A stretch of 64,000 nt of DNA, from positions 576,001 through 640,000 of the forward strand of contig JBEKFP010000001.1 in NCBI GenBank assembly GCA_050013255.1. Direction: 5' to 3'. The notes under the pieces were generated by a model. It saw nothing but the letters and a program-made list of their open reading frames with translations, was not told the origin of the DNA and did not search any database. Source of the DNA: Candidatus Bathyarchaeia archaeon (GTDB taxonomy: Archaea; Thermoproteota; Bathyarchaeia; 40CM-2-53-6). This document shows, piece after piece, positions 48,963 to 61,219 of the stretch (position 1 is its first letter; every line of letters begins with the position of its first letter). The position numbers were made by a program, and so were the translations under genes.

Positions 48963-49496
48963 TCAGACCTGCTTCAGGCTCTTCAGGTAGAGTTCTTGGC
49001 AATGCTCGATGACTTTTCTTGCGGCCTCTGCTTTTTCCCAACCTAACACTTTGACTTGTTTCCCTTCCAAGACCTTGTACGTTTCGAATAGGTACGCGAT
49101 TTCTTTGAGAATGTGCTCTGGCAGACTGTCCAAGTCGTGATATTCAGCGTACCTGGGATCGCCAGTAGGAACAGCCAAGATCTTATCATCCCTTTTGTTG
49201 TCGTCCAGCATCCGAAGCAGTCCCAGAGGCCTCGCTGACATTATGCATCCTGGAAAGGTAGGGCTCGTTACCAGGACGAGAATATCAAGCGGGTCACCAT
49301 CTTCATCGAGAGTCCGCGGGAGAAAACCGTAATCGCCGGGAAAATGCACCGCTGAGAAAAGCACGCGGTCAAGAACTATGGCTTTCTTCTTCACATCGTA
49401 TTCGTATTTGTTTTCAGTTCCTTTCGGGCTCTCAATAACTGCGTACACAACCTCTGGCGAGTTAGGCCCTGTTTCAAGGTCACGCAGGAAATCCAA
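48963..49496 (-). CDS. ppa: Inorganic pyrophosphatase (family I)
   Basis: KYEYD, DYGFLPRTL, DGDPLD, DDKILAV, YKVLE. Confidence 0.95.
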   Translation of the reverse strand: MDFLRDLETGPNSPEVVYAVIESPKGTENKYEYDVKKKAIVLDRVLFSAVHFPGDYGFLPRTLDEDGDPLDILVLVTSPTFPGCIMSARPLGLLRMLDDNKRDDKILAVPTGDPRYAEYHDLDSLPEHILKEIAYLFETYKVLEGKQVKVLGWEKAEAARKVIEHCQELYLKSLKQV

Positions 49497-50239: not shown

Positions 50240-50306
50240 TGACTGTGCCCAGAAGCGATGAAAGGACTAAGCGGAGATCGTATGCACTTTCCTAAGCCTG
50301 CGTCTA

Positions 50307-50331
50307 TGGTGCGGGCAACTGAATTTGAATC
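50307..50331 (-). repeat. tRNA-3'-end-like repeat
   Basis: Minus strand reads GATTCAAAT-TCAGTTGCCCGCA-CCA, about 11 nt after the Alba stop. Confidence 0.65.
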
Positions 50332-50342
50332 AGGTAGCTTAC

Positions 50343-50663
50343 TCATTCCGCTTGGACAGTTTCTTCCTCTTCGTAATCTTCTTCGTTCTCGCGGGTGAGA
50401 GTTATCTCTATTATTGAAATGTTTCCTCTAGTACCATCAAAGCGAGTGACATCCTCTGAACCCAAGTTTATGCTAACAATTTGAGCGTCCTTGAGGAAAC
50501 TTCGCTTCAGCATTTGCACCGTATCGATCGCTTTCTCTATCGCCTGCCCCCTCGCCCTAACCATAACTTCCCCATTTCCTGAATTGAAGAGGGTAACGCA
50601 TGCGGTTACGTAGTTCATGATGGGTTTCTTTCCGATTCGGACAAGGTTTGATTGTTCACTCAT
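50343..50663 (-). CDS. albA: DNA/RNA-binding protein Alba
   Basis: IGKKPIMNYV, VRARGQAIEKAIDT, ISIIEITL; acidic tail. Confidence 0.93.
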   Translation of the reverse strand: MSEQSNLVRIGKKPIMNYVTACVTLFNSGNGEVMVRARGQAIEKAIDTVQMLKRSFLKDAQIVSINLGSEDVTRFDGTRGNISIIEITLTRENEEDYEEEETVQAE

Positions 50664-50795
50664 ATTCTTACCATGGTTTTGTTCTGTTGGGCTAACTGTA
50701 AGGAAGTTGGGTGTTCAGGGATTTTGTAATGGTAAGTTCTTCCATCGGTTATTCGAGATTTAAACGTACTTCCGTACTTCATTCGCGCTGAGCAT

Positions 50796-51794
50796 TTACC
50801 CGCCTATTGTGTGCATGGGCCTAACATGTTCAAGTTTATCGAACTTTTTCAGTAGCGTTTCCACGCCGGGCGCCTTCTGGGAGACAGAGTCGCGCATGAA
50901 ACCTAAAATTGCGTCGTCAGAGCCCCCGTTTCTGAGTAAAGGCCTAAGGTCGAAGCCCGTCTTGTCGAAAAGGCATGGAACAATTTTCCCGTCCGCTGAG
51001 AGCCGTAACCTATCGCAGTCTGAGCAAAACGGCTCAGTTATCGAGGTAATCACCCCAATCTCGCCCTGGCCGTCTTTGAACCGGTAGATTTTCGCGGTGC
51101 TCCCAGTTTCCCTTGTGACGGGTTCAAGTTGGTACTGCTTCTGAATGGTTTGGATAATCTCTTTTCCGCTCACTACCTTCTCCATTCCCCAAAGGCGTTG
51201 CCCGTCGAAGGGCATGTATTCGATAAAGCGAACCGTAATCTCGCCGGCCCTTGCCAACCCAGCTAGATCGCCTATCTCGTCCTCATTGCAACCTCGGATG
51301 ATTACGGCGTTAATTTTGAGCGGTTGGAACCCGTTCTCCTTCGCTGCCCTGATGCCTTCTACGACTTTGTGGAAAACTCCGCCCCCTGTGATTTCGCTGA
51401 ATCGTTCGGGTTTGAGGCTGTGGAGGCTTACGGTTATGCTTTGCAACCCAGCCTTTCTTAGGGCCTCGGCCTTTTCGGCTAGGAGGAACCCGTTAGTGGT
51501 CATGCTCAGCGAGCTGATTCCTGGGACGTGCGCTAGCATTTCAACGAGTTTTTCGATATCCCTACGCATCAGTGGCTCCCCGCCGCTTAGGCGGACCTTT
51601 TCCACTCCTAGTTCTGCGAAGAGTGATACAACTCGCTCGATTTCCTCGTAGCTGAGTATCTCATTCCTGGGCAGCCACACGGGGGTTTTGGGCATGCAGA
51701 ACTGGCAGCGGAAGTTGCAACGGTCCGTAACGGATATGCGAAGCTTGCGCGCAATGCGCCCAAAAGAGTCTGTTAGGGGAACCACGTAACCCAC
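50796..51794 (-). CDS. moaA: GTP 3',8-cyclase
   Basis: LRISVTDRCNFRCQFCM, GGEP, TTNG, RFIEYM, FCSDCDRLR, C-terminal IGG. Confidence 0.96.
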   Translation of the reverse strand: MGYVVPLTDSFGRIARKLRISVTDRCNFRCQFCMPKTPVWLPRNEILSYEEIERVVSLFAELGVEKVRLSGGEPLMRRDIEKLVEMLAHVPGISSLSMTTNGFLLAEKAEALRKAGLQSITVSLHSLKPERFSEITGGGVFHKVVEGIRAAKENGFQPLKINAVIIRGCNEDEIGDLAGLARAGEITVRFIEYMPFDGQRLWGMEKVVSGKEIIQTIQKQYQLEPVTRETGSTAKIYRFKDGQGEIGVITSITEPFCSDCDRLRLSADGKIVPCLFDKTGFDLRPLLRNGGSDDAILGFMRDSVSQKAPGVETLLKKFDKLEHVRPMHTIGG

Positions 51795-51922
51795 GCCGTC
51801 GTTTGATCAGAATACTCGTAGGGAGTCATTTAAGCGATATCTCGAAGCCCCGTTCAGTTCACGGCTCAAACGGTTAACTTTCTTGAGCCACAACCCGTTG
51901 TGCATATGGCTTCTTGGAACCA

Positions 51923-52603
51923 CTAGTCTTTCTTTCGTCGTCGTATCGAAAGAACGACGAGGGCGACTATGAATAGAACGGCGAGAAAGATGACTGACTC
52001 GTAAAGTACATCGCTGGATACACTGAAAGCAGAAACGTTTTGATTTGAAATCGTCGGTGCAAACGTTGTCGAAGTTGACTCCGTAGATGATAGGTTTGAG
52101 GGCAGGTTACTCGCCATAAAGAATAGCGTCGTTGTAGTCTGCGAACTACTTTGGACAACAGAGGTAGTGCTTATCGTCATTTCATTCGGGAGTACCACGG
52201 ATAGTAGGAACGATGACCTGTAACTTCCTACTACGGACCCGAATAAGATCATGTAGGCGGTGGCGTAAACAGGGTACTGGCCGCTTGTTTGAGGTGCCGT
52301 GAATGTGTTTGTCACATCAACTCTTGCAGAATTTACGTTGTTAGAGCTAGTCGAGATGAGATTCTGATGACTGTCGAACAGGTCGATGCGGGCGCGTAGT
52401 GGGCCGACAGGGCAGGAATACAGGGTAACGGTGGTAGTGACGGTAACTGGCTGGTTGGCTGGGACTGGGTTGGGGTAGTTGAATGTGAGGAAGGCAATCT
52501 CGCATAGGTTTATGGCTTGAGCGTGCACGGCAGCATTGTTCCCAAGCAAGAGCAATAGACCGAGTAGGAACAGAGCGTACCGTGAAGCTGCCAAGTTGAG
52601 CAC
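51923..52603 (-). CDS. Secreted surface protein with C-terminal TM anchor
   Basis: Signal peptide, Ser/Thr linker, TM plus RRRKK. Confidence 0.7.
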   Translation of the reverse strand: MLNLAASRYALFLLGLLLLLGNNAAVHAQAINLCEIAFLTFNYPNPVPANQPVTVTTTVTLYSCPVGPLRARIDLFDSHQNLISTSSNNVNSARVDVTNTFTAPQTSGQYPVYATAYMILFGSVVGSYRSSFLLSVVLPNEMTISTTSVVQSSSQTTTTLFFMASNLPSNLSSTESTSTTFAPTISNQNVSAFSVSSDVLYESVIFLAVLFIVALVVLSIRRRKKD

Positions 52604-52678
52604 TTTCGACCATCTAGTTTACGATAGTTTACGATAAAACCGTTCTCCCTGTACGCAGTTTTATCTTCCCGAAGCGCA

Positions 52679-53881
52679 GTGGGGTGGGGGACTTTGGATA
52701 AAGGAAAGTCGGCTAAGGAACTCGGGCTTCGCAACGTCATCAGGCTTGGGTACGTAAGTCTCTTCACCGACATCTCTACCGAAATGATACTTGGCGTTCT
52801 GCCGGTTAACTTCATCATCAACCAACTTGGCGCAACCGCTGCCATACTTGGCCTAATCGAGGGGTCCGCTGAGGCTGCCAACAACATATTCCGAATATTC
52901 GCCGGCGTCCTCACGGACAAGATTGCTAAGCGAAAGCCAATCGTTGTGATTGGCTATGGGTTGTCCACTCTTGCCAAACCGCTCTTCGCGGTGGCCAACT
53001 CGTGGGGTCAAGCGTTTGCTGTGCGAGTTGTTGACAGGGCTGGGAAAGGGACGAGAACAACCCCTAGAGACGCACTCATCAGCGACTCGATTCCTAAGTC
53101 GCAGGCTGGGAAAGGCTTCGGCCTGCATAGTTCAATGGATCAGGTGGGAGCAGTCTTGGGTCCCATCTTATCATTCGTGCTGCTTCCTGTGATCGGCCTT
53201 CGAAACTTGTTTTGGATTTCTTTCATCCCTGGGGCTATTTCTCTAATCATCCTTGTGTTCTTCGTGGCCGATGCTCGAGGACGGATGAGACGAAGGACCG
53301 TGTTCGAAAACGCTAAGGCCGTACTGACGAGGGATTTCGTGCTTTTGCTGGTGGTCTTGGGAATCTTCGCGGTAGGTGCCTACAATTTCTCGTTCATTCT
53401 GTTAGAGGCCCAGTCTCTCGGTGTACAAGGGAACTTTATTCCCTTAGTTTACGCTTTGCTGAATTTTGCCACAGTCATAATCGCCTTTCCGGCCGGTATC
53501 ATTGCAGATAGGATTGGAAAGCTGCCCGTCCTCCTCCTAAGCTTTCTAGTCTTCATGGGCACCTCGCTTGCTGGGGTTGTTCTTGTTGGATATTGGGCCT
53601 ACGGACTCCTAATCGCCATTTTCTACGGTGGTTACCTATCCATTTCGGATACTGTGCAGCGGGCCATGGTCCCAGACTTTACCCGGCCGGAACTGAAGGG
53701 CACCGCCTACGCCTTCTATTACACAATAATTGCCATAGGATCCCTCGTTGCGAACTCAGTATTCGGAGCCCTATGGACTAGCCTAGGCGCGGGGGCGGCG
53801 TTCCAGTTCAGCATCGCAACCTCCGCGGTCGCAGTAGTAGCCCTAATCCTCTTTACCGTTCTCCACCAGCGTTCGGGATGA
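52679..53881 (+). CDS. MFS transporter
   Basis: VSLFTDISTEM, GLIEG, DRAGKGTRTTPRDALI. Confidence 0.92.
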   Translation: MGWGTLDKGKSAKELGLRNVIRLGYVSLFTDISTEMILGVLPVNFIINQLGATAAILGLIEGSAEAANNIFRIFAGVLTDKIAKRKPIVVIGYGLSTLAKPLFAVANSWGQAFAVRVVDRAGKGTRTTPRDALISDSIPKSQAGKGFGLHSSMDQVGAVLGPILSFVLLPVIGLRNLFWISFIPGAISLIILVFFVADARGRMRRRTVFENAKAVLTRDFVLLLVVLGIFAVGAYNFSFILLEAQSLGVQGNFIPLVYALLNFATVIIAFPAGIIADRIGKLPVLLLSFLVFMGTSLAGVVLVGYWAYGLLIAIFYGGYLSISDTVQRAMVPDFTRPELKGTAYAFYYTIIAIGSLVANSVFGALWTSLGAGAAFQFSIATSAVAVVALILFTVLHQRSG

Positions 53882-53946
53882 CTAACATGTTGTCGCCAGA
53901 AAACTACACCACATATTGAAACGACGCGAAAGAAACGTGAACTAAC

Positions 53947-54375
53947 ATGGATCAGCTGAGGGAAGGTATGGTCTTGTTCGTTTGTGTCGAAAACACCTTC
54001 CGCAGCGTCCTAAGCGAAGCCATATTCAACGCACACGCACCCAAAGGATGGCACGCTGAAAGCGCAGGCGTACAGCCCGCCGAAGCCATCAACCCCATTG
54101 CCATAGAACTTCTAAGCGAAGTCGGAATCGGACTTGGCCCTAAGAAACCTAGGCTTGTCTCACGGGAGTTGGTCGCTCGTGCTTGGCGGGTCATCACATT
54201 TGGTTGCGTGGACCGCTGCCCCATAGGGGCGATAGAAAAGTCCGAGGATTGGCCTATTCCCGGAAGTACTGGAAAGAGTCCCCAAGAGCTGCGTGCTATT
54301 CGGGATGAACTACAACGCCGCATTCTCAACCTGATTGAGGAAATTCAACGACACACACCAAATTCAGTTACGTGA
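53947..54375 (+). CDS. Low-molecular-weight PTPase / thioredoxin-type arsenate reductase family
   Basis: LFVCVENTFRS (CX5R), ESAG, GCVDRCP, EDW, IRDEL. Confidence 0.85.
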   Translation: MDQLREGMVLFVCVENTFRSVLSEAIFNAHAPKGWHAESAGVQPAEAINPIAIELLSEVGIGLGPKKPRLVSRELVARAWRVITFGCVDRCPIGAIEKSEDWPIPGSTGKSPQELRAIRDELQRRILNLIEEIQRHTPNSVT

Positions 54376-54425
54376 GGGACGCCCAAACAATATATTGAAC
54401 ACGGATACGGTAGCGGTGTAAACCA

Positions 54426-54677
54426 ATGCCCCGAAAAATACCATCCTCATACCTGCGCAAGTTGAACGAGGAGCAGAAGAAAGCTAAGGAAATCGCAGCC
54501 GAACAGGCAACGAAAAAACCGCGGCCAGTGGACCCAGATTCGGGGAAGCTGAAGGGTTTCACGATGATTTGTCAAACTTGCGGAAGCCGGGCTCGGTTTA
54601 CGGTGGATAAGTTTGGGTATGCGACCTGCGGCAACTGCAGAGCCATAGCAAGCTACAGACTCGGCCACTTAGCATAA
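54426..54677 (+). CDS. Small zinc-ribbon protein
   Basis: CQTC...CGNC; basic N-terminus. Confidence 0.6.
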   Translation: MPRKIPSSYLRKLNEEQKKAKEIAAEQATKKPRPVDPDSGKLKGFTMICQTCGSRARFTVDKFGYATCGNCRAIASYRLGHLA

Positions 54678-54712
54678 CGTGATCCGCAAGAAGACGACCG
54701 GGAAGAACTAGC

Positions 54713-54850
54713 CGGTTCAAATTACCCCGTTCGCACCACTCAAGCCACACACACACTTTTTTGACGACGAACGACGACGGTTCAAATTACGGTGCCCGCA
54801 CCAACGGTACCACACACACAACTACGCACGAACCTACGGTTCAAAATTCG
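54713..54850 (+). repeat. Tandem array of three degenerate tRNA-3'-end-like units
   Basis: CGGTTCAAA at 54713, 54778 and 54837; first two followed by N13-CCA; CACACACAC tracts at 54746 and 54811. Confidence 0.8.
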
Positions 54851-54951
54851 TTTGTTGGTATCGCATGATCGACGGTAACGAATTGACCAGACTATGAGGA
54901 CCATCTAGATACCTTCTTCATCGCAGCATCGCCACCGTACTCTAAGGATTT

Positions 54952-55155
54952 TCACCGCGTCGAGCTTTCGTAGATTTTCTTCTGTAGAGGACAATCGCAA
55001 CGGATGGTCAACTTGTCCTCGTAGAGCTCTAGCTGTCTCTCCTGAATTCCATATTCACGCATGCTCGGGTCCGTCATCTCAAAGCGCTTTCTCAACAGGA
55101 CAAACATGACAAGAGAGCTGGCTAGTATCTCCTCTGGCGTTTCAGCGTCATACAA
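54952..55155 (-). CDS. Short hypothetical ORF or gene remnant
   Basis: 67 aa ORF, no family recognised. Confidence 0.3.
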   Translation of the reverse strand: MYDAETPEEILASSLVMFVLLRKRFEMTDPSMREYGIQERQLELYEDKLTIRCDCPLQKKIYESSTR

Positions 55156-55451
55156 CAGTCGTAAACTTTCGATTCATTAACTGAAGATGACAGCAATGTT
55201 CTGTCTTGGGTCTAGTCGACGATCTATTTATGAATTCAACGTAGATCTTCTAGACCAATTCACATATGGCTGAACCAAAGAAACTGGAAGTTGCCAGGAT
55301 TATTACAGAGCAATGTTCCTGTAGCCGTTATCGTCTATCACAACATCAACCTTCAATTCATTCTTCGGGAATTGCTTGTAGCGTTGCTTGGATGAAGCGT
55401 ACATGTGCATTTAATTGCACGTAGTGGAACACCAGCAGTTGGGGTAAACGC

Positions 55452-56981
55452 ATGAAGCCAGCTTATGCGATCACTTCACTCGCGGTAATTGTGATGCTTC
55501 TCTGCGGGGTTCTTTTACCTCTGGCACCGACCACCGTTCGAGGGTCAGGGTCGAAAATTCAACACCTCATCTTCATCGTCCAAGAGAATCATTCGTTCGA
55601 TAATTATTTCGGAACTTATCCGGGTGCCAATGGATTCTCGCTTGGTGCAGCTATTCCACTTGATCCAAACCAGACAAGCTTGGGATATGTTCACCCGTTC
55701 CATTTGAACGTGACACAACCGATTATGATTTGGGGAGATGAACTTCCGCCTGGTGTGGCTGATCCAGACGATCTTCAGCCTGCGGCTAATTCATCTGCGC
55801 CGTTCCACCTGAACAGCGAATCAATTGGTGGAGATTTGCCCCATGTATGGTTGGTTGCGCACAGAGCTTACGATAATGGGAAGATGGATGGGTTCATTGC
55901 TGCGGAAGGCAGTATTCTGACGATGGGGTACTATGATAGGAGTGATCTACCCTACTACTGGGATTACGCGAACCAATACGTGTTGGACGACAACTTCTTC
56001 TCTTCCCTGATGGGTCCAAGTTTTCCGAACCATCTCTACATTGCCTCGGGAACAAACGGGCCTCTGAACAACTTACCTCCACTCTGCCTCCAAACTCACT
56101 GCAAGTGGATAGAGAACGGCAGAATACTCGACGATCCTCCGTCGGACTATGATTGGCAAGGCCTCTCTCTGGACTGGTCAACGCTTGCTCAGGAACTTAG
56201 TAGCGCGAACGTGCCTTGGACATGGTATGATGGAGAGGCTATACCAACGAAACCAAACATTTGGGATGTCCTACCCCTCTTCACCTACTTCCAGAACCAT
56301 CCTGATCAGCTAATTGAGCACGTTAAGAATACTCAAGCCTTCGTCAACGATACCCAGAACGGCCAGCTCCCGGCAGTCTCATGGATATTCCCTGGTGGCT
56401 GGGTTCCACCAACCTACCCCGCTGCATGCAAAGGTCAATCCACAAGCGAACATCCACCAGCGAGGAGTGACTGCGGAATGGATTACGTCTCATACTTAGT
56501 GAACCAAGTGATGAAGAGCCAGTTTTGGCAATCGTCTGCGATAATCATTACCTGGGATGATTATGGTGGCTTCTACGACCATGTTCCTCCGCCACAAGTC
56601 GACGCCTACGGCGAAGGCTTCAGAGTGCCAACTCTCGTAATCTCACCGTGGGCGAAACATGGGTTCACTGACCACACGCAATACGAACTTGCATCCCTCC
56701 TGCGGCTGGCTGAAGACAACTTCAACCTCCCAACTCTCGGTGTGAGAGATGTGAAAGCTAACGATATGATGAATTCATTCGACTTCAAGCAAGCCCCCCA
56801 ACCTACACTGATCGAGCCCGCAAACTTTGTAGGCCCAACACCAGAAACAACCACAACAACGCAGACAACCGCAATCCCTGAACCCAACCCGACTCAGACA
56901 TATCTTATTCTAGCCCTTGCAGTAGCGATTGCCGCTATTGTGCCGACCTACATAATACGACGGCGTACTGCAAGAAGTTAA
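55452..56981 (+). CDS. Secreted phosphoesterase / phospholipase C (alkaline-phosphatase superfamily) with C-terminal anchor
   Basis: [48 protein letters not shown]; IPEP, TM and RRR. Confidence 0.92.
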
Positions 56982-57202
56982 CATGGTGCCCGCGTCCTGA
57001 AAAGTCGACTACGGATTGTTCCCATATAGCCTTCTGCGTTACTTATGGTCTGCTCGAAATAGCTAGAGTGCGGTGGTTTCCACATGCGTTTGCCAGTGGG
57101 ACGCATTTCAGATCGTACGCGGATTCTGCATCACGTATATGAGAGTTGTATTGTAGCCGCTACCATTCAATTCTGTTTTTGTCGCGGAAGGTGCCGACGT
57201 GC

Positions 57203-57259
57203 GCACACACACGAAAATAGCGACGAAAGACGTCAGTTCAATTTCCATTGCCCGCACCA
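57203..57259 (+). repeat. tRNA-3'-end-like repeat with CA/GACGA leader
   Basis: CACACACACG..GACGAAAGACGTC-AGTTCAATT-TCCATTGCCCGCA-CCA. Confidence 0.7.
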
Positions 57260-57559
57260 TTGGACCCACACCTATGAAAAGTCTAATCCAGCATGCGATT
57301 CTTAGGTGGTTCTTCTGCGTGGCGTTCAGGCCTCGCTAACTATTCTGTCCGGGAGTTTATCCTTTTCTTCGATCTTTTCCTCCATTTTTTCTTGGTTGGC
57401 CTGAACGCGGCAATCACCTATTCGCGCGCTAGGGCGCATTCAAGGGGCCGCTCCGAAGACTGCCCATTCACACACCCGACCGATTTCGGTCATGTGGTTC
57501 TCGGGCTTACCAACCACGAGAAATACTCACACGCTAGAACTTAGGACTTTTCATCCTTT

Positions 57560-57614
57560 CACACACACTTTTTGACGACGACGGACGTCGATGGTTCATA
57601 TCAACAGCGTTCCA
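57560..57614 (+). repeat. Degenerate copy of the same repeat
   Basis: CACACACACTTTTTGACGACGA (near-identical to 54748-54770), then GGTTCATAT. Confidence 0.7.
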
Positions 57615-57638
57615 CTCGGTAGCTCAGGTTCTGGGGGC

Positions 57639-58382
57639 CTAGGTGGAGAACAATTTGTCTCTATCGAGCAAGAGTTCGTTTTCGGAGTATTTCTTGGCGT
57701 ACAATTTCCTTACGAGCAAGAAACGTCGCGGCCTCGCTCTTAGTTCTCTTTCATAGATCTCGATGACGCCGTCAAAGAGGTCGAGTATAGTCTGTGCCTC
57801 TTCTTTTGCTATAAGGGGGTTTAAGCTGGCTATAGTTGTGAATCCCTCGGTCTTCCGTTTGGCTATGAAATCCGATAGCCATTTCCGAGTGGTTAACGCC
57901 TTGTGTCTAAGAAGTATGTCAGAGAGTAAATCGAGGATTATGATTTTGCTGACATCCTTCCTTGCCTGATATTCGACCATCGGGCTTGTTAATGAGAAGG
58001 AGATGTTGAGTTCGCTTAGGTTCTCGACGCCGGGAATCTTGTAAAGATTCTTGCCTGAATGTTCTATTTTGTCGGCCTGTGGAGAAAATGCGTAGAAATC
58101 TTTCCCGTAACTGCGCAAGTAGTCCCCCGTTCTTTCGGTGTCGGATGAAAGATAGAAGACGGGGGTTGACGTTGAAAGTGCTGTGCCGATGATTTTTCTA
58201 AGTAGGAAGTCCCGCTCGTCATAGGCCGGAGAAACGACCACTACTCCGTACCGTTCGGGGATACCGCCGCCGAGCAGGCCATCCAAGTCCGTGTAGCCCG
58301 TTGAAATGATGCCTTCATGTTTCAAGCTTGCTACCGCGGGAGGAGATTTTCTTCTTCTCGCAACAACAAGAACACCGGCCAC
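57639..58382 (-). CDS. RAD55/KaiC-like domain protein with degenerate Walker A, probably 5'-truncated
   Basis: ISTGYTDLDGLLGGGIP, SPAYDERD replacing the P-loop, LFDGVIEI; begins in a TM remnant followed by RRRK. Confidence 0.75.
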   Translation of the reverse strand: MAGVLVVARRRKSPPAVASLKHEGIISTGYTDLDGLLGGGIPERYGVVVVSPAYDERDFLLRKIIGTALSTSTPVFYLSSDTERTGDYLRSYGKDFYAFSPQADKIEHSGKNLYKIPGVENLSELNISFSLTSPMVEYQARKDVSKIIILDLLSDILLRHKALTTRKWLSDFIAKRKTEGFTTIASLNPLIAKEEAQTILDLFDGVIEIYERELRARPRRFLLVRKLYAKKYSENELLLDRDKLFST

Positions 58383-58412
58383 TATGACAACGGCGACAAC
58401 GAAGAGTTGTAA

Positions 58413-58694
58413 TCAGCCGAAGAATTCCTTTGGGGTCACCGCGACTTCGTATGTATTTGGAACGAACGGTAGCTTCAGCTTCGACACTTCAGCGTAGAAA
58501 ATTCTGCCGGCTTCGTTAAGTCTCTCATATTTGTCAACATGGAATATGTAGAGAAGCGTGCCTGACTGGGGAAAGTATGGGCCGTCTATTTTTCCTCCGA
58601 CCGCCTTCTCAATTTTGGAATGGATCTCGTTCATCTTCGCTAAGTCTTTCTGAAGGTCCTCTCCTTCGTAGTCTAATCTGACGAGAATTATCAA
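58413..58694 (-). CDS. Hypothetical protein
   Basis: 93 aa ORF co-oriented with the cupin gene. Confidence 0.6.
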   Translation of the reverse strand: MIILVRLDYEGEDLQKDLAKMNEIHSKIEKAVGGKIDGPYFPQSGTLLYIFHVDKYERLNEAGRIFYAEVSKLKLPFVPNTYEVAVTPKEFFG

Positions 58695-58715
58695 TTCGTT
58701 CTCACTCTTCGTACA

Positions 58716-59087
58716 TCACTGCTTTGTTTGCTTGGCGTAGTCAATCATGCCTTGAAAGTCAACTACAACCGCAGGTTCATTGCCCACGACCCATGCGTCG
58801 TGGCCAGACGGGAGAAGCGAGATGTCTCCTGCCTTACAGTCCTTCTCGGTGCCGTCGTCCATTACTACATGAAGAACGCCGGAAACATGGTACTGGAAGT
58901 GTGGTGCTTCACAACTTTTCGTTTTCGCTATTGGCTTGACGGAGGTTGACCAACGCCATCCGGGCTGGAAAACTCCACGCCCAACGACAGCCCCACCAAT
59001 TTTCACCAATTCAAGCTTGCCCTTTTCGAAATTCCTGGTTTCGTCAGGAGAGTTCAGACTCTTTAGTTCCATTTTCTGCATATGCAT
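58716..59087 (-). CDS. Cupin domain protein
   Basis: PDETRNF, FQPGWRWS, CEAPH, GHDAWVVG. ORF extends to 59120. Confidence 0.88.
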   Translation of the reverse strand: MHMQKMELKSLNSPDETRNFEKGKLELVKIGGAVVGRGVFQPGWRWSTSVKPIAKTKSCEAPHFQYHVSGVLHVVMDDGTEKDCKAGDISLLPSGHDAWVVGNEPAVVVDFQGMIDYAKQTKQ

Positions 59088-59247
59088 CACAAATTGACGT
59101 CTACATAGGTATGCGACCACGCATAATTAGCATTTGCATCTAGCAAGTTTCTGTCGATGGGTAGGACGGTCCGATTGCACATGAAATGACTCTTTCTTAA
59201 TCGAATTGCCCTGTTCGCGAGAGATTCTCTCTGTGTTCTAGCTAGTC

Positions 59248-60324
59248 TCACGAAGCCTTAGCCTGCTTCCGTTTTCGCAAAAGACTTGCAGCACAGACCG
59301 CAACTGTGAGTAGGACAAGAAACGAAGGAAGTGGAAACTCAGGAATTGCGAAACCCTGTGGAGCTTGGGCCAATCCTATCTGTGGACCCGTACCAGCACC
59401 TATCCCGTCATAGTAGACCATCAAGCCATCTCCGACAGCTAGGTTGGCTTGCTCCACGCCTGCAAAATCCCAAGTACCTTGCGCTCCAGGGCTTAGAATC
59501 GGATTGGGAGAATACCGCGTCCATGTTGCTCCGTCGGGTGAGGTCGCTAACCCAATCTGGGGGAGTCCATTGTTCGGTCCCAAGCCTGAATACCACAGCC
59601 AAAAGGTGGTTCCGTTAAAGTACACTGACGGTGAATAGACTGAACCAGAGTCCCAAGCGGTAGGATCCGATGAGGGGAAGAAAACAGGGTGAGGCCATTT
59701 GCTCCATTTGAGTCCGTCGAATGATGTTGCGTAGAGAATACTTGTGAACTGGGTCGAATTCGCGTTTTTTCCTGTGTACCACATGTTGTACGTGAGCCCT
59801 AATCTGATCACGTAGGGGCTTGCTATGTATCCTTGGTCAATCGCGGTTGCAGTCAAGACTGGGTTGCGGGAATTCTTGGTCCATGAGACTCCGTCCTTAG
59901 AGGTTGCCAGACCCACAGCACCACTTGCGAAGGCGGTGGGGTTGCTTCCTCTGTACCACATCATGAAGAAGGTCCCGTTCCAGAGAACAGAGCCCAAGGC
60001 AACCGAAGACCTGTCCCAGGCACCGGGTAGACCGGGTTCCAAAACAGGGCCAGCGAGCTGGCTCCATGAAATCCCATCCTTTGAAGTCGCATATCCGACC
60101 CCACTGCTCCCGGACCGACCGCCATTAAACCACATTCGGTAGATCTTGCCGTCATAGATTACCCTGGGAGTAGTTGTATAGTCGGCATCCCACTGATTCG
60201 ACGTAGGGCCAAGCACAGGGTTACTTGGGGATTTCACCCATTGTGCATCACCAAAAGCATTTGGCAGTAGAAGGACGAAGATGAAAAAGAGCGCCACCCC
60301 CAGTAACCTTTTTTTCATATGCAA
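59248..60324 (-). CDS. Secreted five-bladed beta-propeller glycosidase-like protein (GH130/43/32 clan-like) with PEF-CTERM-like anchor
   Basis: Repeats of MW(Y/F)xG..IGxATSxDGxxW..NPVL; IPEFP, TM and RKRK. Confidence 0.8.
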   Translation of the reverse strand: MHMKKRLLGVALFFIFVLLLPNAFGDAQWVKSPSNPVLGPTSNQWDADYTTTPRVIYDGKIYRMWFNGGRSGSSGVGYATSKDGISWSQLAGPVLEPGLPGAWDRSSVALGSVLWNGTFFMMWYRGSNPTAFASGAVGLATSKDGVSWTKNSRNPVLTATAIDQGYIASPYVIRLGLTYNMWYTGKNANSTQFTSILYATSFDGLKWSKWPHPVFFPSSDPTAWDSGSVYSPSVYFNGTTFWLWYSGLGPNNGLPQIGLATSPDGATWTRYSPNPILSPGAQGTWDFAGVEQANLAVGDGLMVYYDGIGAGTGPQIGLAQAPQGFAIPEFPLPSFLVLLTVAVCAASLLRKRKQAKAS

Positions 60325-60544
60325 TAACCGTCTGCCTCTAATTGCAAAGAAGTAACTTGAAAATCTTGTACTCAGGGCATTAGCGCCCTTAGCCTGACAC
60401 GTTGAAGACCGTCAAGTTGAGGTTGGCCTCTTTCCCTGACGCTTTTGAACTTGAGATGAGGCACAACTTAGATCGAGCTGCTTTTCCCATATCTATCTCC
60501 AATGGTTCGAACCACGGAATTCGAACGTGTAACTCTGCACTCAG

Positions 60545-61219
60545 TTAGGAAGGGGGAGCCAGTTCTAGGACTTCCAGTTCTGAATTCCTCCTTAGGCGCA
60601 TATCAAAGACTTCTTCGAAATTCCTGTGCACTTCATTCTTGACAAGGCCGAAGTCCATCTCCCTACTAAGTAGAGCTTTCATTGAGGTCATCGTTGAGCC
60701 TGGGAATCCACAAGGGGTTATCATCTGGAAATAATTCAGGTCGGTGTTTACATTGAGTGCGGCTCCATGGAAGGTAACCCAGTTTCGAACTGCCGCTCCG
60801 ATTGAAGCTATCTTCTTTCTGCCAACCCAAACGCCCGTCTGCTCTCCGCGCTCTCCGGCAATTCCGAACTTGGCGAGGGCCCGGATTAGCGTCTCCTCGA
60901 TGTTCCGGAGAAACCCATGGATGTCCCGCTGGCGTGCATTTAGGTCTAGGATCGGGTACCCGACCAACTGGCCCGGGCCATGGTAAGTCCATTGGCCGCC
61001 TCGCTCTATCCTGAAGACCGGGACACCCTCCACGGTTGCTGGGACTTCGCCTGCAATGCCCTTCCCCACTGTGAAAACATGCGGGTGCTCCACCAACACT
61101 AACGTGTCCGGTATGGCTTTCTTAACTCGAAGCTCGAGCAGCTTGCGCTGCAGGTTCCAGACTTCCGCGTAATCCCGCGAGCCTAGGTCTAGGAGATTTC
61201 CTTCGATTGTTGTAGGCAT
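60545..61219 (-). CDS. lipB: Lipoyl(octanoyl) transferase
   Basis: VEHPHVFTVG, RGGQWTYHGPGQLVGYP, KIASIG, HGAALN, PCG. Confidence 0.93.
   Translation of the reverse strand: MPTTIEGNLLDLGSRDYAEVWNLQRKLLELRVKKAIPDTLVLVEHPHVFTVGKGIAGEVPATVEGVPVFRIERGGQWTYHGPGQLVGYPILDLNARQRDIHGFLRNIEETLIRALAKFGIAGERGEQTGVWVGRKKIASIGAAVRNWVTFHGAALNVNTDLNYFQMITPCGFPGSTMTSMKALLSREMDFGLVKNEVHRNFEEVFDMRLRRNSELEVLELAPPS

Follow-up and report, generated by a model that had tools for sequence, protein, structure and literature searches.

A 64-kb stretch of the genome of a Candidatus Bathyarchaeia archaeon (genome G000, 2.46 Mb in three contigs; the stretch, C1:576001-640000, is referred to below as the window, and positions given without a contig are those of the window) contains a family of short repeats that resemble the 3′ end of a tRNA. 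Comparison with complete elements elsewhere in the same genome indicates that these repeats most likely represent landing sites, together with end stubs, that belong to family-2-like casposons and to derivatives of such casposons that lack Cas1. Casposons have been proposed as the ancestors of the adaptation machinery of CRISPR, and most knowledge of their biology comes from Methanosarcina and Aciduliprofundum. The kind of system described here is already known; for portable landing pads, enzyme-less elements that carry genes and dispersed mimics of the tRNA-Leu end, the literature search found no earlier description.

Anatomy and tRNA likeness of the repeat copies

An earlier note on the window had reported four copies with exact tRNA geometry, each consisting of a T-loop-like heptamer followed by 13 nt and CCA, and the coordinates and strands given for them were confirmed here. 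When the pattern from that note was searched with up to two mismatches, four exact-geometry copies were found in the window, compared with 0.03 expected from 100 shuffles, no one of which contained more than a single match. A background frequency, which had been named beforehand as grounds for rejecting the family, is thereby ruled out. According to the window gene calls, all copies are intergenic, as had been claimed, and the plus-strand copies lie on both sides of a phosphoesterase gene of the phospholipase C (PLC)/AcpA family (55452-56981). Two further copies described as decayed (54838 and 57593) are real and in register, each being located behind a CA-repeat tip and an ACGAC-rich spacer in the same manner as the better copies; the CGCACCA core is lost in both.

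The T-loop and CCA portion that was recognized originally is sound but forms only part of a longer conserved unit. In the aligned copies, this unit opens with a CA-repeat tip, frequently extended by a short T- or A-run; next come a spacer rich in ACGAC, the 18-nt leader (GGTTCAAATT followed by five free positions and GCC), and a 14-nt core starting with CGCACCA, which is directly followed by the next CA-repeat tip. Where units are arranged in tandem, the period is 60-65 nt. The leader and the first seven positions of the core are nearly invariant in the alignment, and the five positions in between vary freely and without covariation. Judged from the aligned copies, this pattern of conservation is that of a protein recognition and cleavage site, not that of a folded RNA.

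Together, leader and core constitute a strongly conserved imitation of the 3′ end of host tRNA-Leu. The host tRNA-Leu genes, which have a long variable arm and a T-arm, end in the imitated sequence: the leader corresponds to the T-loop side of this end, and the CGCA at the start of the core corresponds to the last bases of the tRNA body plus the discriminator, after which CCA follows. The genome junction scan found no tips after the host tRNA-Leu genes; the real tRNA-Leu genes are unoccupied.

The copies themselves do not behave as tRNAs. Neither ARAGORN nor Rfam called a tRNA anywhere in the window, in agreement with the earlier statement that a 5′ tRNA half is missing. In the 47 non-tRNA copies of the strict motif found in G000, the T-stem positions are paired at 2.51 of 5, compared with 2.58 with shuffled partners, and the real tRNA ends of this genome score 4.41 of 5; the T-stems are indeed unpaired, as the same note had stated. 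The paired T-stem, the acceptor stem and the match to a tRNA model that would identify a tRNA or tRNA-like RNA were not found, and tRNA-like folding of the copies is ruled out by T-stem pairing at the shuffled level. These results bear on a second proposal of the note, a tRNA-derived repeat acting in RNA processing, and on the broader reading in which the unit would be a tRNA-derived RNA element that is kept for its role as a processing, 3′-end or terminator signal. That the copies are intergenic, often behind a gene of the same orientation, that their 3′ end reads CCA, and that, of the four CA tips in the window, two have a T-run behind them (54757-54762 and 57569-57573) would suit such a role, which nevertheless gains no support from pairing or from the RNA-family searches. 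In addition, both orientations relative to neighboring genes occur, some copies lie between convergent genes, and conserved blocks separated by a free 5-nt gap without covariation fit a protein-binding and cleavage site. A retained RNA function is considered very improbable, and the T-runs behind the two tips could act as archaeal terminators as a side effect.

One real tRNA (Gln by ARAGORN) at C1:1132371-1132760 has an encoded CGCACCA end with a degenerate CA-type tip 14 nt later and a further landing site ∼235 nt downstream; here a true tRNA gene may have served as the target. Most tRNA genes of G000 contain introns, and the intron mode of ARAGORN fuses landing-site copies or distant halves into false tRNAs with “introns” of 1-2 kb (e.g., C1:1237017-1237264 and C1:308733-310426).

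Within the window, site A (50300-50331, minus strand; leader 50331-50314, CGCA core 50313-50300) is situated between the Alba stop and the LysE start. There is no CA-repeat tip after its core, and it is a solo or empty landing site. The other sites are on the plus strand, as are the tips and spacers between them. Site B (54714-54745; leader 54714-54731, core 54732-54745) is the first sequence past a synteny break behind a Zn-ribbon gene. Abutting core B is an element-end stub (54746-54778) made up of a CA-repeat tip (54746-54756) of the type found at Cas1 element termini, a T-run and an ACGAC-rich spacer, and this leads into site C (54779-54810; leader 54779-54796, core 54797-54810), 65 nt past site B. 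Core C is in turn abutted by a CA-repeat tip (54811-54820) and a degenerate spacer, together spanning 54811-54837, and then comes site D (54838-54855), a decayed leader with a one-base insertion and no CGCACCA core after it. Beyond a 67-aa open reading frame (ORF) and the phosphoesterase gene, an inverted CGCA-type 14-mer (57190-57203, minus strand) abuts the next tip, such that the minus strand reads GT-repeat and then core, as at a right-end junction; this inverted core-then-tip arrangement is common across the genome. The tip and spacer concerned (57204-57234; CA-repeat tip 57204-57212) precede site E (57235-57266; leader 57235-57252, core 57253-57266), and core E is followed directly by a multi-copy element of ∼300 bp (57267-57559), which has short inverted ends of its own and copies beside the same kind of core elsewhere in G000 and in many congeners. 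The series ends with a further tip, T-run and spacer (57560-57592; CA-repeat tip 57560-57568) and site F (57593-57610), a decayed leader from which the core is lost. All four CA tips (54746, 54811, 57204 and 57560) and all plus-strand leaders have the same direction, and the window carries only left-hand, or target-proximal, junction stubs.

The ∼300-bp element contains a conserved open frame of 83 codons (57293-57544) with no Pfam match. Its nearest full copy, 90% identical, is at C1:197649-197948 beside a core at C1:197618, and copies are present on many contigs of the congeners G002, G003 and G014; each copy examined lies directly against a 14-nt core of the casposon type. There are also shorter relatives, 78-95 nt in length, with a GT-repeat tip at the end. 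A different dispersed repeat, 40-65 nt in length, lies at 53875-53921 between the genes for a major facilitator superfamily transporter and a phosphatase, with two partial copies in G000 (C1:844285 and C1:948234) and 85-89% copies in G004, G011 and G014.

Casposase-bearing and Cas1-less elements in the genome and genus

No recombinase gene was found in the window, which also contains neither of the two Cas1 genes of G000 (C1:1333420-1334640 and C3:231179-232381). The two Cas1 copies share 60% identity. The 407-aa protein encoded on C1 aligns through residues 4-402 with the casposase of Methanosarcina mazei (6OPM) at an E value of 3.9e-74, and the alignment includes the C-terminal region and the catalytic E/H/E blocks. 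By this alignment, the element encodes a Cas1-type casposase with the C-terminal helix-turn-helix (HTH) extension of family 2.

The first Cas1 element (C1:1330271-1346549, 16.3 kb) has inverted ends of ∼60 nt that start with a CA repeat, and it is flanked by a perfect 14-bp direct repeat of a CGCA core. One copy of this core has the leader directly in front of it, and behind the copy at the opposite end comes the tip of a neighboring element. A spare leader plus core belonging to the element itself, pointing inward, is located ∼205 nt inside one end. The second Cas1 element (C3:228092-239043, 11 kb) likewise has the leader-core duplication, but its inverted tips are GC-rich. Defense-like cargo was noted in the 16.3-kb element (C1:1332295-1346549, locus L013), namely AIPR, an N6/N4 DNA methylase, and DndB-like and HATPase-like proteins.

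Pairing of cores across the genome with at most one mismatch gave 16 pairs, which correspond to at least 12 elements of 0.6-16.3 kb with leader, core and tip on one side and GT-repeat and core on the other. Terminal inverted repeats and 14-bp CGCA duplications, both hallmarks of family 2, are thus present in this genome, the latter in the 16 pairs and not at window cores A, B, C and E. At least ten elements of 0.6-14 kb lack Cas1 and combine inverted tips, consisting of 9-13 nt of CA/GT, with a perfect or near-perfect 14-bp core duplication; many of them carry ordinary genes as cargo. Given that several element pairs use non-consensus cores present exactly twice in the genome, chance reuse of the consensus is excluded. 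Several element ends also contain a spare, inward-pointing leader plus core ∼33 nt inside one tip. A third type of inverted end (∼34 nt, starting with GGGGATATTACATA) was observed in a 5.2-kb element at C1:716105-721324, which is inserted in a leader-core site, where ∼12-14 bp are duplicated; another end of this type stands alone at C1:254421.

The anatomy of these elements is informative about the enzyme. According to the earlier note, the copies could be att-like sites served by a recombinase in trans, with archaeal tyrosine integrases as the model; in a rival reading along these lines, successive tRNA-targeting elements would have left partial tRNA 3′ ends behind as attachment-site (att) scars. 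The copies do resemble a tRNA 3′ end, and some are found 100-250 bp downstream of real tRNA genes. Moreover, the genome has three tyrosine integrases, two of which are a few hundred bases from ordinary tRNA genes. However, these integrase genes are confined to contigs C2 and C3, with none on the window's contig; complete elements have inverted CA/GT termini and duplications of exactly 14 bp beginning with CGCA, not longer att identities; the leader, with its unpaired T-stem, is consistently unlike every real host tRNA; and the copies have extra non-tRNA flanks (tip and spacer) in common. An integrase near the site and att identity without inverted termini, which would mark a tyrosine-integrase system, were not observed. 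Integrase scarring is largely refuted and almost certainly does not account for the family. What survives of the original proposal is that these are DNA-level target sites derived from a tRNA 3′ end, that the enzyme is encoded elsewhere and that gene content is variable; the choice of a tyrosine integrase does not survive, in view of the inverted termini, the 14-bp CGCA duplications and the full-length casposase homologues in two elements, which point to a Cas1 casposase.

The motif scan that the note had called for was run over the whole genome and showed that the family, with its 47 non-tRNA copies, is dispersed genome-wide and also genus-wide. A profile search of G000 returned 51 matches with E < 1e-3 and 69 with E ≤ 0.1, core-plus-tip half copies included. 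Copies were found in all 18 sampled congeners (1 to 43 each), and the reversed control gave 0 matches. Genomes from other families of the order gave 0-4 matches each, apart from one with 16, and at least some of these are ordinary tRNA ends. A census of junctions in G000 yielded 29 of the form leader-core-tip, 23 of the form GT-end-core-tip and 14 in which a GT-end and core had no tip. Looser counting gave 78 cases of leader plus CGCA and 37 of GT-repeat plus CGCA in the genome, compared with 22 and 1, respectively, in the reversed genome. Casposase matches were obtained in 10 of the 18 congeners. In a descriptive comparison of these related genomes, five of the six congeners with a full-length casposase have 23-43 sites, the sixth (G010) having only four, and the congeners without a casposase match have 1-23 sites each.

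Alternatively, the 60-65-nt unit might be a miniature repeat in its own right that has spread through homologous recombination, through replication slippage or by means of another transposase, and that casposons merely exploit as a target. Its persistence in genomes without a detectable casposase and the use of the same sites by at least three end types are consistent with this, as is the observation that tandem units are not flanked by identical cores, so that the unit is not itself a duplication-flanked insertion. By contrast, the unit starts with the same CA tip as the casposon ends and forms the terminal part of duplication-flanked elements; the Cas1 element carries one unit ∼205 nt inside its end, and no other candidate enzyme was found. 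An origin independent of casposons is accordingly regarded as improbable. A repetitive extragenic palindrome or a repeat resembling a MITE (miniature inverted-repeat transposable element) was also considered and was dropped because the Cas1 element has the same tip, core, leader and 14-bp duplication; the 60-65-nt units are flanked by different cores and have no second inverted end, which does not conform to a MITE.

Comparison of sites A and B between species

Comparison with related genomes revealed synteny breaks at the sites. In four congeners, homology to the window covers the Zn-ribbon gene and breaks off at 54680-54697, a short way ahead of site B; on the far side, congener homology resumes at 60472-60603, before a lipoate-ligase (LplA/B) gene. 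The segment between these convergent genes, 54698-60471, is a variable island that contains sites B-F, the 67-aa ORF, the phosphoesterase, a KaiC-like ATPase, two small ORFs and a GH130-like gene. In G018 and G033, the island is absent, and only 23-35 bp separate the two flanking homology blocks. An unrelated insert occupies the place of the island in G004 (0.8 kb) and in G014 (3.5 kb), the latter being the closest relative, with flanks that are 92-94% identical. Given that the Zn-ribbon and lipoate-ligase genes are no more than 138 bp apart in 19 of the 24 metagenome loci that contain both, the ancestral state is probably the empty one, to which this species has probably added its 5.8-kb island.

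The island has a composite make-up. In one metagenome contig, the GH130 gene beside the ligase is the only part shared with it. For the phosphoesterase, G002, G003 and G009 have genes with 82-87% identity, and G014 is without a phosphoesterase at this position. In loci L018 and L062, from more distant metagenome lineages, tandem leader-core-tip units are found directly downstream of the lipoate-ligase gene in the opposite orientation, which marks the gap between the Zn-ribbon and ligase genes as a recurrent landing spot. These tandem units are at 1940-2070 of L018 and 716-790 of L062; in L062, the core overlaps the end of the ligase reading frame, the last codons of which run into the element tip.

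At site A, G014 has kept the site, and G004 shows leader, core and tip, followed by ∼130 extra bp and a second core. In G018 and G033, an inorganic pyrophosphatase gene without any site lies between LysE and Alba (1500-2137 of locus L006 in G018). In the genome analyzed here, the pyrophosphatase gene (48963-49496) is on the other side of LysE, and site A, in the gap 50240-50342, stands in its old place. No DNA match to the pyrophosphatase gene was found in G004 or G014. Breakpoints thus coincide with the motif at both A and B. Gene content at the copies differs among related genomes, a point on which the note had asked for a test, and the stable synteny that it had listed as a contrary outcome does not hold between species.

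Proposed mechanism and relation to known systems

On the basis of these comparisons, the following sequence of events is suggested, in which the casposase is inferred to be the maker of the window junctions. The enzyme, encoded elsewhere by its two gene copies, would bind the leader, cut one strand at the boundary between leader and core and the opposite strand 14 bp further along, and then link in an element with CA-repeat-tipped ends, so that the core is duplicated. Given the spare leader plus core inside one tip, every insertion would deliver a new pad. Such a portable pad would explain the tandem 60-65-nt units, which may have arisen either by insertion into the pad of a previous element or by mobilization from an outer tip with the pad carried along. 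In the window, target-proximal stubs would head (B, C and D) and interrupt (E and F) the 5.8-kb species-specific island, and the solo pad A would stand where relatives differ.

Several results weigh against this reading. In the window itself, no GT-repeat right end was found along the 64 kb, and when the whole genome was searched, with at most two mismatches allowed, for partners of cores A, B, C and E, none was found in the expected context; consequently, no segment of the window can be demonstrated to be an insertion with defined bounds and flanking duplications. A leader-core is missing from the empty allele of G018 and G033, which implies that the first pad to land there did not do so in a canonical target. 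No casposase match was obtained in 8 of the 18 congeners, including G018, which is 98% complete and has 23 sites. Movement within the species was sought by exact-protein look-ups for insertion or excision variants: the island arrangement is identical in 22 of 22 contigs carrying the exact phosphoesterase, and the Cas1 element is at a single locus in 23 of 23 population contigs, with no current movement seen. No family B DNA polymerase (PolB) is encoded by the ten largest ORFs of the 16.3-kb element, and neither Cas1 element has one. Likewise, no protein-primed PolB was found in the genome, the three PolB genes of which are all on contig C2; the element-borne polymerase of a self-synthesizing casposon is therefore lacking. 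Finally, no sites were detected within the fetched flanks of the closest PLC homologues (G002, G003, G008, G009 and G032).

This last result also concerns the phosphoesterase gene, which the earlier note had described as flanked by copies on both sides. A clean, bounded cassette is contradicted by the lack of sites in the fetched flanks of the closest homologues in other species together with the lack of a matching partner core for any site in the window.

Among known systems, the family 2 casposons of M. mazei (MetMaz-C1 and the tRNA-Leu casposons) are closest to the putative casposons described here. In M. mazei, integration generates a 14-bp duplication that starts with CGCA, the final 4 bp of tRNA-Leu falling within it, and depends on ∼30 bp of tRNA sequence lying upstream (PMC4779613, PMC6977970); tandem integration, solo ends beside CGCA and excision that yields a single empty target have also been described (PMC10359463). 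The present elements share with them a Cas1 that aligns at full length with 6OPM, the region of the C-terminal HTH included, the 14-bp CGCA duplication located where a tRNA-Leu-type sequence ends, inverted termini, the use of one site in tandem and solo ends next to CGCA. They differ in that neither Cas1 element has PolB, that ∼47 dispersed mimics serve as sites whereas the real tRNA-Leu genes are unoccupied, that many natural elements of 0.6-14 kb lack Cas1 and carry ordinary genes, and that a spare landing pad is present inside element ends.

Resemblances to other systems are more partial. With the CRISPR leader-repeat junction used by Cas1-Cas2, the elements have in common that the enzyme belongs to the Cas1 family, that the duplicated segment is preceded upstream by a leader-like recognition sequence and that arrays result from repeated leader-proximal insertion. 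Here, however, there is no Cas2, the inserts are gene-sized or end stubs and not spacers, the duplicated segment is 14 bp, and each unit has its own leader whereas a CRISPR array has one. Integron cassette arrays (IntI, attI and attC) are similar in having short conserved sites between accessory genes and an enzyme able to act in trans, but the contig has no tyrosine recombinase and no attC-type hairpin, the junctions consist of a duplication plus inverted tips, as in transposition chemistry, and the PLC gene of the window is not a portable cassette. Archaeal elements that integrate into tRNA genes by means of tyrosine or SSV-type integrases likewise have a target derived from a tRNA 3′ end and leave partial tRNA-like copies in the chromosome; 14-bp duplications, inverted tips, a Cas1 enzyme and unpaired T-stems set the present elements apart from these. 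A literature search found no account of casposons in this lineage, of natural enzyme-less casposons or of portable target mimics.

It is conceivable, although doubtful at present, that the portable pad and a trans-acting, polymerase-less casposase together form a working gene-capture platform that moves or stacks genes such as those for LysE, the pyrophosphatase or the phosphoesterase by Cas1 chemistry. If so, it would be a naturally occurring system that stands midway between transposons, integrons and CRISPR arrays. For casposon biology more generally, the target logic of CGCA, tRNA-Leu end and 14 bp has apparently, in this lineage, been copied to decoy sites that are movable and number in the dozens; the genuine tRNA-Leu genes remain untouched, and enzyme-less elements with ordinary genes use these decoys. 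For annotation, the motifs mark likely rearrangement points in this genome group. Should the pads be active, they would provide a natural analogue of a CRISPR leader plus repeat, in which the site choice of Cas1 and the growth of arrays become testable.

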